Positions 500 through 64,000 of a stretch of DNA of 64,000 bases are shown in pieces (position 1 is the first letter of the stretch; each line of letters opens with the position of its first letter). Under the pieces are notes generated by a model. That model was given only the letters and a program-made list of their open reading frames with translations, was not told where the DNA came from and ran no database searches. Origin of the DNA: Escherichia coli (lineage in GTDB: Bacteria > Pseudomonadota > Gammaproteobacteria > Enterobacterales > Enterobacteriaceae); assembly GCF_022846255.1 (NCBI RefSeq), contig NZ_AP025682.1; one strand, written 5' to 3'. The translations under genes were made by a program, and so were the position numbers.

Positions 500-610
500 G
501 TCCATGCCGGATGCGGCACAAACGCCTTATCCGGCCTACAAAAGTTTGCAAATTCAATAGATTACAGAATTCATGTAGGCCTGATAAGCGAAGCGCATCA
601 GGCCTTTTTG
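500..610. repeat. REP/BIME palindromic units in the sbp–pfkA intergenic region
   Basis: gccggatgcggcacaaacgccttatccggcctac and gtaggcctgataagcgaagcgcatcaggcc, the canonical E. coli REP consensus. Confidence 0.6.
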
Positions 611-5572: not shown

Positions 5573-5595
5573 ACTCCGCATTTGTAGGCAGGATA

Positions 5596-5670
5596 AGGCG
5601 TTTACGCCGCATCCGGCATTTGAGCAGGATGCCTGATGCGACGCTGATAGCGTCTTATCAGGCCTACACT
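5596..5670. repeat. REP/BIME elements in the cpxA–yiiM intergenic region
   Basis: gccgcatccggcatttgagcaggatgcctgatgcgacgctgatagcgtcttatcaggcctac. Confidence 0.55.
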
Positions 5671-14170: not shown

Positions 14171-14690
14171 ACACTGCCGGATGCGGCACAAGTGCCTTAT
14201 CCGGCCTACAGGTCAGCAACAGTTGTAGCCCTGATAAGACGCGACAGCGTCGCATCAGGCATTGATTGCCGGATGCGGCACGAGTGCCTTATCCGGCCTA
14301 CGGGTCGGCAATAGTTGTAGGCCTGATAAGACGCGACAGCGTCGCATCAGGCATTGATTGCCGGATGCGGCACGAGCGCCATATCCGGCCTACGGGTCGG
14401 CAATAGTTGTAGGCCTGATAAGACGCGACAGCGTCGCATCAGGCATTGATTGCCGGATGCGGCACGAGTGCCTTATCCGGCCTACGGGTCAGCAACAGTT
14501 GTAGGCCTGATAAGACGCGACAGCGTCGCATCAGGCATTGATTGCCGGATGCGGCACAAGTGCCTTATCCGGCCTACGGGTCGGCAATAGTTGTAGGCCT
14601 GATAAGACGCGACAGCGTCGCATCAGGCATTGATTGCCGGATGCGGCACGAGTGCCTTATCCGGCCTACGGGTCGTGCATCCGACAACAC
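14171..14690. repeat. BIME tandem array (REP pairs) filling the rhaA–rhaD intergenic region
   Basis: Unit gccggatgcggcac(a/g)agtgccttatccggcctacgggtc(a/g)gcaa(c/t)agttgtaggcctgataagacgcgacagcgtcgcatcaggcattgatt recurs with a ~93-bp period; starts at about 14177, 14270, 14363, 14450, 14543 and 14636. Confidence 0.8.
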
Positions 14691-19318: not shown

Positions 19319-22300
19319 ATGCAGGTCAGCAGAAGGCAGTTCTTTAAGATCTGCGCTGGCGGTATGGCAGGCACCACGGCGGCGGCACTGGGTTTTGCAC
19401 CCAGCGTAGCACTCGCGGAAACCCGGCAGTATAAACTGCTGCGCACCCGCGAAACCCGTAATACCTGCACCTATTGTTCCGTAGGCTGTGGGCTGTTGAT
19501 GTACAGCCTCGGTGACGGAGCAAAAAACGCCAAAGCATCTATCTTCCATATCGAAGGTGACCCGGATCACCCGGTCAACCGCGGAGCACTTTGTCCGAAA
19601 GGCGCTGGCCTGGTGGATTTCATCCACTCCGAAAGCCGTCTGAAGTTTCCGGAATACCGTGCGCCAGGTTCTGATAAATGGCAGCAAATCAGTTGGGAAG
19701 AGGCGTTTGATCGCATCGCCAAACTGATGAAAGAAGACCGCGATGCAAACTACATTGCGCAAAACGCCGAAGGCGTGACTGTTAACCGCTGGCTCTCCAC
19801 CGGGATGCTGTGTGCTTCCGCGTCGAGTAACGAAACCGGCTATTTAACGCAAAAATTCTCCCGCGCGCTGGGTATGCTCGCGGTCGACAACCAGGCGCGT
19901 GTCTGACACGGACCAACGGTAGCAAGTCTTGCTCCAACATTTGGTCGCGGTGCGATGACCAACCACTGGGTCGACATCAAGAATGCCAACCTCGTCGTGG
20001 TGATGGGCGGTAACGCCGCTGAAGCTCACCCGGTCGGGTTCCGCTGGGCGATGGAAGCCAAAATTCACAACGGCGCGAAGCTGATTGTGATCGATCCTCG
20101 CTTTACGCGTACGGCGGCGGTGGCTGACTACTATGCCCCTATCCGTTCCGGTACTGACATTGCTTTCCTGTCAGGCGTATTGCTGTACCTGCTGAACAAT
20201 GAAAAATTCAACCGCGAATACACCGAAGCCTATACCAACGCCAGCCTGATCGTGCGTGAGGATTACGGCTTTGAAGATGGCCTGTTCACCGGCTACGACG
20301 CGGAAAAACGCAAGTACGATAAGTCCACCTGGACTTACGAACTGGACGAAAACGGCTTCGCCAAACGCGATACTACCCTGCAACATCCACGTTGCGTGTG
20401 GAACTTGCTGAAACAGCACGTTTCCCGCTACACGCCAGATGTGGTTGAAAACATCTGTGGTACGCCAAAAGACGCATTCCTGAAAGTCTGCGAATACATC
20501 GCCGAAACCAGTGCTCACGATAAAACAGCGTCGTTCCTCTACGCCCTCGGCTGGACGCAACACTCCATCGGTGCGCAGAACATCCGTACGATGGCGATGA
20601 TCCAGTTGCTGCTCGGCAATATGGGGATGGCTGGCGGCGGCGTTAACGCCCTGCGCGGTCACTCCAATATTCAGGGGCTGACCGACCTGGGGCTGCTGTC
20701 GCAGAGTCTGCCAGGTTACATGACGTTGCCAAGCGAGAAGCAGACCGATCTGCAAACTTACCTCGCTGCCAACACGCCAAAACCACTGCTGGAAGGCCAG
20801 GTCAACTACTGGGGCAACTACCCGAAATTCTTCGTCTCAATGATGAAGGCATTCTTTGGTGATAAAGCGACGGCGGAAAATAGCTGGGGCTTTGACTGGT
20901 TGCCGAAGTGGGATAAAGGCTACGACGTCCTGCAATACTTCGAGATGATGAAAGAGGGCAAGGTCAATGGCTATATCTGCCAGGGCTTTAACCCTGTTGC
21001 CTCATTCCCGAACAAAAACAAAGTGATCGGCTGTCTGTCGAAGCTGAAATTCCTCGTAACTATCGACCCGCTGAACACTGAAACCTCTAACTTCTGGCAG
21101 AACCACGGTGAGCTGAACGAAGTTGACTCGTCGAAGATCCAGACCGAAGTGTTCCGTCTGCCATCGACCTGCTTCGCGGAAGAGAACGGTTCAATCGTTA
21201 ACTCTGGTCGCTGGTTGCAATGGCACTGGAAAGGTGCGGACGCCCCGGGGATTGCGCTGACTGATGGCGAGATCCTCTCCGGTATCTTCCTGCGCTTGCG
21301 CAAGATGTATGCCGAACAGGGTGGTGCGAACCCGGACCAGGTGCTGAACATGACCTGGAACTACGCCATTCCGCATGAGCCATCTTCAGAAGAAGTGGCA
21401 ATGGAGAGCAACGGCAAAGCGCTGGCCGATATTACCGACCCGGCAACCGGTGCGGTTATCGTCAAGAAAGGCCAACAACTTAGCTCGTTCGCCCAACTGC
21501 GCGATGACGGTACAACCTCCTGTGGCTGCTGGATTTTCGCCGGTAGCTGGACGCCGGAAGGCAACCAGATGGCGCGTCGTGATAACGCCGATCCGTCTGG
21601 CCTCGGTAACACGCTGGGCTGGGCATGGGCATGGCCGCTTAACCGCCGCATTCTGTATAACCGCGCCTCCGCAGATCCGCAGGGTAACCCATGGGATCCG
21701 AAGCGTCAGTTGCTGAAATGGGACGGCACTAAGTGGACCGGCTGGGATATTCCGGATTACAGCGCAGCGCCTCCGGGCAGCGGCGTAGGGCCGTTTATCA
21801 TGCAGCAGGAAGGCATGGGACGTCTGTTTGCCCTCGATAAGATGGCGGAAGGTCCGTTCCCGGAACACTACGAGCCGTTTGAAACGCCGCTGGGAACTAA
21901 CCCGCTGCATCCAAACGTTATCTCGAACCCGGCGGCGCGTATCTTTAAAGACGACGCCGAAGCATTGGGTAAAGCCGATAAGTTCCCGTATGTCGGAACC
22001 ACCTATCGTCTGACCGAGCACTTCCACTACTGGACCAAACACGCGCTGTTGAATGCGATTTTGCAACCAGAGCAGTTTGTGGAAATCGGGGAGTCGCTGG
22101 CGAATAAACTTGGCATTGCCCAGGGCGATACTGTGAAAGTCTCCTCCAACCGTGGCTATATCAAAGCCAAAGCGGTAGTGACCAAACGTATTCGCACGCT
22201 GAAAGCAAACGGCAAAGATATCGATACCATCGGTATTCCGATTCACTGGGGCTATGAAGGTGTTGCGAAAAAAGGCTTTATTGCCAATACGTTGACGCCA

Positions 22301-45643: not shown

Positions 45644-45795
45644 AACTTTGCCTCAGGCATTAGAAATAGCGCGTTATTGTACACGGATTAATCGCACTAC
45701 AAAACAGGATCACAAACATCCTCCGCAAACAAGTATTGCAGAGTCCCTTTGTGATCGCTTTCACGGAGCATAAAAAGGGTTATCCAAAGGTCATT

Positions 45796-45932
45796 GCACC
45801 AATATGGTGCTTAATGTTCCCATTGAAGCACTATATTGGTGCAACATTCACATCATGGTGCAGCCCTTTTGCACGATGTTAAGCATGATAACGCCTTTTA
45901 GGGGCAATTTAAAAGTTGGCACAGATTTCGCT
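45796..45932 (+). promoter_or_regulatory. glnA control region: NtrC enhancer sites and sigma-54 promoter glnAp2
   Basis: NtrC-type palindromes gcaccaatatggtgc (45796-45812) and gcactatattggtgca (45828-45843); sigma-54 -24/-12 element ttGGCACagatttCGCTt at 45916-45932. Confidence 0.7.
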
Positions 45933-50306: not shown

Positions 50307-50458
<152 letters not shown>

Positions 50459-52085: not shown

Positions 52086-52595
52086 TTAGTTGCCCCGCAG
52101 CAGACGCATCATGTCTTCTTGCTTCTCGTCTTCTTCCTCTTCTTCGTCATCGTCATAAGAGAGGCCGAGTTTCTGCATCAACTCATCAATACGATCCAGT
52201 TTGGCATCCACCCAGGATTGCTCTTCGGCGCTCAGGGTTTTGCCTGCTTCCAGACGTTCCAGCAGCGCATCCAGACGCTCATCCGTTTCCAGTAACTCCA
52301 ACTCCGCCTTCGGTGAAAGCATAGGTTTCTCACTCTTCGGTTTGTGCTGTTTGGTGACTTTTTCAGTCACGCCCAATGGAATAGGGGTTTTACTGCCAAT
52401 ACGTGGATCTTTTGGTGCGTTCTGACCTTTGCTGCCTGACGTGGTGTTACCGCCCGCTGCGCGGCTGCCCGGCGCATGACCACGACGTTTTTTCTGACGC
52501 TTACGGTCACGAGCTTCCTGATCCAGCTCCTCGCGTGTTTTTCGACGCGCTTTTGCATGACCTTTGCTGCGTGAGTTTGAAGATGATGGTTTCAT
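52086..52595 (-). CDS. yihI: Der GTPase-activating protein YihI
   Basis: [39 protein letters not shown]...; acidic C-terminus [16 protein letters not shown]; 169 aa from the internal Met. Confidence 0.9.
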
Positions 52596-52666
52596 AATGG
52601 TTCGTCTTTTAGCCGTTTTATTCAGTATAGATTTGCGGCGGAATCTAACAGAAAGCAAGCAAAGAA

Positions 52667-52906
52667 AAAAGGCGACAGATTACTCTGTCGCCTTTTTTCC
52701 TGACTCATAACCCTTAACGGGTCTTACAATCCTTGCAGGCCGCCAACACACCCTGTTTTTCCATTAGCCGGAACAATCCGTGTTGATTCCATTTCCATTT
52801 AATTACGTCTCCGGACGTTTATCTTCCTGACAATCCTCTGTCTTCGCCTCCTGGCGCTCCTGACCCTCATCCTGAGTCATTGTTCCTGTTAGCGTCCTCG
52901 CTCTAT
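52667..52906 (-). ncRNA. csrC: CsrC, CsrA-sequestering sRNA
   Basis: Intergenic yihI–engB, the known csrC locus; minus strand carries many GGA motifs (plus-strand TCC: atccttgc, tctccgga, cttcctga, atcctctg, ctcctggc, ctcctgac, atcctgag, gttcctgt); ends at terminator ggcgacagagtaatctgtcgcc + T-run; 5' end approximate. Confidence 0.6.
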
Positions 52907-53161
52907 GGGTGCTACTTTACGCCTTTGCTTTAAATAAACAATCAACCGCCATCAGTATTTGCACATTTTCAGAGTTTTATATAAAAGCAATTCACTGATT
53001 TATATAGCTTATTTGACATGCGTCGCAGAATTTTCTCTGCTATTTCGCATAAAGACTATCGGCAATGTCTCACAAAGCATATGGCTTTTACTTACAACGC
53101 TCACGCCGAAAAATCCGCCTTTTATTATGGTTCAGGTATAATCGCCGCAAAGCTTTGACTG

Positions 53162-53809
53162 ATGGAGACGACCGCTTTGACTAATTTGAATTATCAACAG
53201 ACGCATTTTGTGATGAGTGCGCCTGATATTCGCCACCTACCTTCCGATACCGGAATTGAAGTGGCTTTTGCAGGCCGTTCCAACGCAGGTAAATCCAGCG
53301 CGCTGAACACGCTGACTAACCAGAAAAGCCTGGCTCGTACCTCAAAAACCCCAGGGCGCACCCAGCTTATCAACCTGTTTGAAGTGGCTGACGGCAAGCG
53401 TCTGGTTGACTTGCCTGGATACGGTTATGCGGAAGTCCCGGAAGAGATGAAGCGCAAATGGCAGCGCGCGCTCGGCGAGTACCTCGAAAAACGTCAGAGC
53501 CTGCAAGGTCTGGTGGTGCTAATGGATATTCGCCATCCGCTGAAAGATTTGGATCAGCAGATGATTGAGTGGGCGGTAGACAGCAATATCGCCGTGCTGG
53601 TACTGCTGACCAAAGCGGACAAACTGGCAAGCGGCGCACGTAAAGCGCAATTGAATATGGTGCGTGAAGCGGTGCTGGCGTTTAACGGTGATGTGCAGGT
53701 TGAAACGTTTTCTTCGCTGAAGAAACAAGGCGTGGACAAGCTGCGGCAGAAACTGGATACCTGGTTTAGCGAGATGCAGCCTGTAGAAGAAACGCAGGAC
53801 GGCGAATAA
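53162..53809 (+). CDS. engB: Ribosome-biogenesis GTPase EngB (YihA)
   Basis: ...[45 protein letters not shown]... (G1 GRSNAGKSS); the annotated start may be an internal TTG. Confidence 0.9.
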
Positions 53810-53934: not shown

Positions 53935-54043
53935 TAAAAAACGCCCCAGTCATTACTGACTGGGGCGGCTAAAATATTCAGCCAAATCCGATTACGTGAA
54001 GTAAAAGGTCTGAAAGATAGAACATCTTACCTCTGTACCCTAC
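53935..54043 (-). ncRNA. spf: Spot 42 sRNA
   Basis: Minus-strand sequence GTAGGGTACAGAGGTAAGATGTTCTATCTTTCAGACCTTTTACTTCACGTAATCGGATTTGGCTGAATATTTTAGCCGCCCCAGTCAGTAATGACTGGGGCGTTTTTTA matches Spot 42 as recalled, including its terminator; location between polA and engB. Confidence 0.85.
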
Positions 54044-54190
54044 GCGACTAACTTTACTCTTTTTTGTTCAGTTCAGAAAGCATTTTTTGTAATTTTTTTT
54101 CAGTTGTTGCATAGGAATTTCTAATAGCCATCACAAAACGTGACAGCTTATGTTGCTTACTTACGAAAAAAGGGCATGTTCAGGCGAATC

Positions 54191-63139: not shown

Positions 63140-63259
63140 ATGCCTGGCAGTTCCCTACTCTCGCATGGGGAGGCCCCACACTACCATCGGCGCTACGGCG
63201 TTTCACTTCTGAGTTCGGCATGGGGTCAGGTGGGACCACCGCGCTACGGCCGCCAGGCA
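63140..63259 (-). rRNA. rrfA: 5S ribosomal RNA (probably rrfA given the adjacent mobB)
   Basis: Reverse complement reads TGCCTGGCGGCCGTAGCGCGGTGGTCCCACCTGACCCCATGCCGAACTCAGAAGTGAAACGCCGTAGCGCCGATGGTAGTGTGGGGCCTCCCCATGCGAGAGTAGGGAACTGCCAGGCAT; 120 nt. Confidence 0.9.

Positions 63260-63357: not shown

Positions 63358-64000
<643 letters not shown>

Follow-up and report, generated by a model that had tools for sequence, protein, structure and literature searches.

Escherichia coli K-12 csrC was reportedly described by Weilbacher et al. in 2003, and its product, the CsrC sRNA, is said to have been characterised since then. K-12 CsrC sequesters CsrA through GGA motifs in loops and linkers, at up to about five CsrA dimers per RNA (PMC7652899, PMC10729762), and its GGA count is tabulated as 14 (PMC10729762). 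The csrC gene is activated by UvrY phosphorylated by BarA, without an IHF requirement (PMC4682653), and it is repressed in E. coli by cAMP-CRP, which competes with UvrY (PMC7591399). The turnover of both K-12 RNAs, CsrB and CsrC, depends on CsrD and RNase E (PMC7591399, PMC7652899). CsrB (RF00018), which belongs with CsrC to the Rfam clan CL00106, is also a CsrA sponge made of multiple GGA hairpins and controlled by BarA-UvrY from a far-upstream inverted repeat, but it is longer, carries 22 GGA, lies at another locus and needs IHF for activation, and the inverted repeat of csrC is less symmetric than that of csrB. RsmY and RsmZ of Pseudomonas and other Csr/Rsm sponges resemble CsrC in being activated by GacA/UvrY and in titrating proteins of the CsrA/RsmA family with repeated GGA loops, although RsmY and RsmZ have no sequence-level homology with it and lie at other loci.

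The DNA analysed here, called the window, is a stretch of 64,000 nucleotides of E. coli (contig NZ_AP025682.1). The spacer between its yihI and yihA (engB) genes carries on the minus strand an element which is almost certainly the intact, already known E. coli csrC gene in an ordinary common allele, and none of the results speaks against this reading. The identity, structure, motif content, terminator, UvrY site, synteny and conservation of the gene were established in the present analysis.

Identity and locus of the csrC gene

A scan of the whole window with Rfam 15 finds CsrC (RF00084) at 52653..52906 on the minus strand, with a score of 276.7 bits (E = 2.9e-87; the gathering score is 61), and the match covers model positions 1-255 of 255, so the element is full length and not truncated. 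The initial annotation had proposed CsrC on this strand of the spacer and had taken a covariance-model match as the point on which the proposal would stand or fall, so that the full-length match confirms it. Alignment to the K-12 gene, the other check that had been named, gives the same answer: csrC of K-12 MG1655 (b4457, “small regulatory RNA CsrC”, 4051036..4051281) aligns to window 52661..52906 on the minus strand with 243 of the 246 positions identical. The identification as CsrC follows from the RF00084 match and the K-12 identity, together with the position, the strand, the GGA array and the terminator.

The window gene is like K-12 csrC in locus, orientation, length, number of GGA motifs, terminator and UvrY repeat, and differs from it by three substitutions in the RNA and four in the upstream spacer, one of which adjoins the putative -35 element. 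The RNA substitutions are C86U (52821), which lies in a linker, and C110U (52797) and A144U (52763), each of which alters the base directly preceding a GGA. The alignment of the spacer to K-12 has no difference in a GGA motif, in the terminator or in the UvrY site.

The interval 52596..53161, which had been given for the sRNA signature, is the entire intergenic spacer; it does hold csrC, but the RNA itself occupies only 52661..52906, and the remainder, 52907..53161, is the csrC promoter and regulatory region (Table 1). The neighbouring engB had been started at the ATG that adjoins this interval, while RefSeq places the start of yihA/engB further inside the gene. In the curated K-12 record csrC has yihA, then spf and polA, to one side of it and yihI, then hemN, to the other, and the order polA, spf, yihA, csrC, yihI, hemN is common to the window and K-12, the window being inverted.

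Table 1. Positions in the window of csrC, its structural and control elements and the adjoining genes
Feature	Position	Strand	Basis
csrC gene (CsrC sRNA)	52661..52906	-	246 nt per K-12 annotation
csrC ends	transcription start 52906; 3' end beyond the terminator U-run	-	K-12 alignment
GGA motifs, 5' part (first G)	52897, 52886, 52872, 52860, 52851, 52836, 52827	-	motif count
GGA motifs, 3' part (first G)	52812, 52796, 52790, 52779, 52762, 52732	-	motif count
GGA in terminator (first G)	52700	-	motif count
Array of GGA-presenting hairpins and linkers, putative CsrA-binding sites	52726..52902	-	motifs and consensus structure
Array hairpins 1-4	52902..52891, 52879..52861, 52856..52845, 52842..52829	-	Rfam consensus structure
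Array hairpins 5-7	52818..52805, 52785..52744, 52736..52726	-	Rfam consensus structure
Rho-independent terminator of csrC	52701..52662	-	18-bp stem, 7 G-C pairs, 4-nt loop
Putative sigma-70-type -10, TAAAGT	52919..52914	-	distance to K-12-defined RNA 5' end
Putative -35, TTGTTT, 16-nt spacer to -10	52941..52936	-	distance to K-12-defined 5' end
UvrY site, 18-nt imperfect inverted repeat TGTGAGACATTGCCGATA	53057..53074 (-168..-151)	-	exact published match
TGTAAG half-repeat, 16 bp upstream of the UvrY repeat	53091..53096 (-190..-185)	-	exact match
yihI, begins 65 nt downstream of csrC	52086..52595	-	ORFs and RefSeq
yihA/engB, divergent from csrC	ATG at 53162; RefSeq start 53177	+	
PGAP pseudogene in the window	52714..52880	-	RefSeq/PGAP
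PGAP pseudogene elsewhere	L001 2782..2948; L003 1520..1689; L004 2059..2225; L005 2532..2698; L006/L007 427..593		

Other RNA elements were found by Rfam in the 64-kb window. The Spot 42 (spf) sRNA at 53935..54053 on the minus strand is a full-length match of 122.8 bits and has its K-12 position between yihA and polA, and Spot 42 lies beside csrC in 11 of 12 loci from other species, the twelfth (L008) ending before that side. The nucleoid-associated REP-type RNA naRNA4 (CssrE) has seven matches, of which five form a head-to-tail array with a period of about 92 nt at 14228..14666 (-) and the others are at 5587..5664 (+) and 50328..50399 (-). ES222 sRNA matches at 45725..45832 (-) with 132 bits, ES036/CssrF at 541..582 (+) with 37.9 bits, barely above threshold, and the selenocysteine insertion element SECIS_3 at 19901..19959 (+) with 84 bits, presumably inside a formate dehydrogenase gene. 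The 5S rRNA is at 63142..63257 (-) and the 3' part of the 23S rRNA at 63358..64000 (-), where it runs off the window end; these rRNA genes lie about 10.2 kb from csrC, a distance that fits the rrnA operon of the K-12 map.

GGA motifs, RNA fold and terminator

The spacer contains 15 GGA on the minus strand and 3 on the plus strand, and 14 of the 15 lie inside the 246-nt RNA, in agreement with the at least eight minus-strand motifs that had been claimed and equal, for the RNA, to the published K-12 value. The background of the window is 3.3 GGA per 254 nt per strand, and csrC is the top-scoring 254-nt stretch for GGA on either strand of the 64 kb. Dinucleotide shuffles of the RNA have 8.9 +/- 2.0 GGA, 0.9% of them reaching 14 (p about 0.009), and mononucleotide shuffles have 7.7 +/- 2.2, 0.6% of them reaching 14, so the enrichment over composition-preserving shuffles is only modest, because the whole RNA is purine-rich.

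CsrC has a fold energy of -87.7 kcal/mol, which corresponds to z = -5.2 against shuffles. The single minimum free energy (MFE) fold hides several 5' GGA in a long-range helix, which contradicts the family structure supported by covariation, and for this reason it was dropped as the basis for counting loops. The loop and linker classes were taken from the Rfam consensus structure and from ensemble unpaired probabilities; the loop count depends on the family consensus structure, because the MFE fold buries the 5' motifs. The consensus structure puts 11 of the 14 GGA in loops or linkers, 6 of them in hairpin loops and the other 5 in single-stranded linkers, and of the remaining three one is in a bulge, one in a stem and one at the terminator base. 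The hairpin-loop spacing that had been read from the motifs is borne out by this structure for the six loop motifs, with the five linker motifs beside them. In the partition-function ensemble the mean P(unpaired) is above 0.5 for 9 of the 14 GGA and above 0.9 for four.

The Rfam structure was projected onto a MAFFT alignment of 73 sequences, where standard pairs occur in 85.9% of cells against 39-49% in controls that slide the partners by 1-3 columns, and changes on both sides of a pair occur in 89 cells against 14-46 in the slid controls. Compensatory pairs are found in helix 1 (G-C 44, A-U 26), helix 5 (U-A 43, C-G 24) and helix 6 (C-G 24, A-U 22); helices 2 and 6 appear weaker, mostly as a result of MAFFT offsetting Escherichia-like against Enterobacter-like sequences. 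GGA is kept in at least 63 of the 73 sequences at 8 of the 14 sites, and it is invariant at 52851 and 52732.

The terminator stem is followed by the U-rich tail CTTTGCTTGCTTT, which agrees with the strong intrinsic terminator noted earlier at the 3' end. The terminator is kept in all 73 sequences; across the 73 species 99% of it is paired, and of the 16 pairs modelled in it 10 do not vary.

The SELEX consensus for CsrA is RUACARGGAUGU, in which a purine is preferred immediately 5' of GGA, and A144U departs from this purine. Judged from the sequence, it is unlikely that C110U and A144U make one or two sites bind CsrA slightly less tightly; if they did, the buffering by CsrB and CsrC would be shifted in the lineages that have this allele, about one fifth of complete E. 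coli.

Control region and distribution among genomes

UvrY binding to E. coli csrC was mapped by ChIP-exo and DNase I footprinting by Zere et al. 2015 (PMC4682653), who footprinted the 18-nt repeat TGTGAGACATTGCCGATA, found a UvrY crosslinking zone at -49..+32 and placed the csrC promoter, with that of csrB, among the two strongest genomic sites of UvrY; a TGTAAG half-site is described for csrC of E. coli and Salmonella in the same work (PMC4682653). Both the repeat and the half-repeat are present in the window (Table 1). The known site stands unchanged at its known distance, which points to a UvrY-dependent csrC promoter, and 39 of the 70 species with enough upstream sequence have TGTGAGA at about -153 to -168. 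The core promoter of csrC is probably located at 52914..52941, an assignment that rests on the 5' end of the K-12 RNA and on GTAAAGT, which is kept at an equal distance from the start in other genera; a strict sigma-70 consensus scan of 52500..53300 called no promoter.

Of 5426 complete E. coli genomes, 5425 have a match to the 566-nt spacer, and 5425 have one to the 254-nt RNA. Identity classes were read from 40 evenly spaced rows of the ranked 5425-genome matches, and these comprise common classes with 100%, 99.2% and, for K-12-like alleles, 98.8% identity; one outlier among the genomes has 86.9%. The exact RNA allele of the window is in 8 of the 40 rows, about one fifth of complete E. coli. 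GGA motifs were counted in one or two representatives of each identity class: the window allele, K-12 and two alleles of the 99.2% class have 14, and the common classes sampled in this way cover nearly all of the 5425 genomes. Thirteen GGA are found in one divergent E. coli allele and in Escherichia sp. MOD1-EC7003, and both drop only the GGA of the terminator stem, which is base-paired (P(unpaired) 0.01). Variation of the GGA count between strains was absent among the common E. coli alleles sampled, and the initial suggestion that strain-specific differences in the count alter the capacity for CsrA sequestration is therefore unsupported, as every one of these alleles has 14.

Species-representative genomes were scanned with a 22-base GGA-hairpin pattern, which gave 80 loci, and 72 of these have csrC homology by nhmmer; the other eight are from unrelated phyla, have no csrC homology and were discarded as chance matches. 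The homologues belong to 72 species of about 20 Enterobacteriaceae genera, which include Escherichia, Salmonella, Citrobacter, Enterobacter, Klebsiella, Kluyvera and Kosakonia, and also Leclercia, Lelliottia, Trabulsiella, Yokenella, Phytobacter and others. Twelve of twelve diverse representatives are full-length CsrC in Rfam, with 140-298 bits. The order yihA, csrC, yihI is kept wherever the flank is in the fetched DNA (yihA in 67 of 72, yihI in 71 of 72), with a divergent yihA 243-374 bp upstream of csrC, in all but one case 243-283 bp, and yihI on the same strand 50-98 bp downstream. Across the 72 species the GGA count is 12-17, with a mode of 14 (44 of 72).

Three E. coli genomes carry csrC loci of an unusual form. 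In strain Z1322HEC0002 (NZ_CP148581.1, L003 1497..1750) a csrC body of about 200 nt, equivalent to window 52703..52902, is divergent with 79-88% identity, while the flanks, promoter and terminator are 96-100% identical, and this form is found in 1 of 5425 genomes. The gene is nevertheless recognised as CsrC, at 264 bits, and contains 13 GGA, and the best match of its body among the 72 species is just 87%; in sequence it looks like a short-patch replacement from an enterobacterial donor. In NZ_CM149864.1 (L005 1170..2500), from a pig-faeces isolate, an IS3-family element is inserted at csrC -5..-1, equivalent to window 52907..52911, between the -10 and +1, and to judge by its position this insertion should uncouple csrC from its UvrY-dependent promoter. 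In NZ_OZ546967.1 (L004 1034..1801) an IS1A with a 9-bp target duplication is inserted at csrC -231..-223, equivalent to window 53129..53137, between the yihA start and the UvrY site; csrC and the UvrY repeat are intact, and yihA is cut off from most of its upstream region.

Annotation, alternative readings and role of CsrC

The RefSeq/PGAP records of E. coli that were inspected have no csrC ncRNA and place inside csrC a pseudogene of 167-170 nt for a “hypothetical protein”, labelled as frameshifted in all six records and also with an “internal stop” in five of the six. The curated record of K-12 MG1655 annotates csrC as an ncRNA, b4457. The earlier remark that gene callers do not report this element holds for protein-gene callers and for RefSeq/PGAP, but not for the curated K-12 record. 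The pseudogene looks like a systematic mis-annotation, and its probable origin is in the chance open frames that Leclercia and a few other genera have.

A reading of the region as the remains of a protein-coding gene, in place of an RNA gene, would agree with the presence of the pseudo-CDS in every RefSeq E. coli record inspected and with the open frames of up to 81 codons that run through csrC in a few other genera, yet these long frames are low-complexity translations of GGA and purine repeats, rich in E, K, R and G. In the window the frame of the pseudo-CDS has two in-frame stops within 55 codons. Of 73 species, only 6 retain its putative ATG, and no reading frame in csrC survives the single-base indels that separate the species. 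Conservation follows the RNA hairpins and GGA motifs and not codons, and the curated K-12 record has an ncRNA at the position of the pseudo-CDS, which leaves a decayed coding gene extremely improbable. Coding potential was rejected on the translation of the pseudo-CDS and an ORF search of the 72 homologues, since the start codon and the frame are unconserved.

An RNA element could also act mainly in cis, as a CsrA-regulated 5' leader of yihI and not as a sponge acting in trans, and the placement of yihI on the same strand 65 nt downstream, an arrangement kept in all species examined (50-98 nt), is in its favour, as is some read-through of the terminator into yihI, with which the sequence is compatible. 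This is very unlikely, however, as a very strong terminator of 18 bp with an invariant G-C core separates the GGA array from yihI in every one of the 73 sequences, K-12 CsrC, which is nearly identical, occurs as a separate RNA of about 245 nt that acts in trans (PMC7652899, PMC10729762), and the csrC promoter is, with csrB, one of the two places in the genome that UvrY targets most strongly (PMC4682653). A trans-acting sponge could in turn be a paralogue of the CsrB type (RF00018), or a generic CsrB/RsmB clan member, and not CsrC proper; both families are in CL00106, and cmscan noted lower-scoring overlapping clan matches, which were suppressed. No credence is given to this reading: the best CL00106 match is CsrC over the full length, about 246 nt with 14 GGA fits CsrC and not CsrB with its 22 GGA (PMC7652899), and the locus of the window is the K-12 csrC locus.

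CsrA binding, regulation and turnover of the csrC product of the window are inferred from published studies of K-12 csrC, which is nearly identical. The csrC gene would be transcribed on the minus strand from 52906 and stop at the intrinsic terminator at about 52661, which would give a non-coding RNA of about 245 nt in which about a dozen GGA are accessible, some in the loops of short hairpins and others in the linkers between them. Each CsrA dimer would take two GGA, so one CsrC would occupy several dimers and keep them off mRNA targets of lower affinity, and in this way it would relieve the repression or activation that CsrA exerts on glycogen synthesis, biofilm formation, motility and central carbon metabolism. 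Phosphorylated UvrY at the -168..-151 repeat would activate csrC transcription, cAMP-CRP would oppose it as in K-12, and decay dependent on CsrD and RNase E would remove the RNA.

This copy of csrC brings no new biology, and its practical value lies in annotation, as pipelines that rely on RefSeq/PGAP records of E. coli miss the csrC sRNA and count a false pseudogene. In the sequences compared, the number of GGA motifs looks constrained and not strain-variable, and the 14 GGA of the common alleles, with the range of 12-17 over about 20 genera, indicate stabilising selection on the capacity of the sponge.
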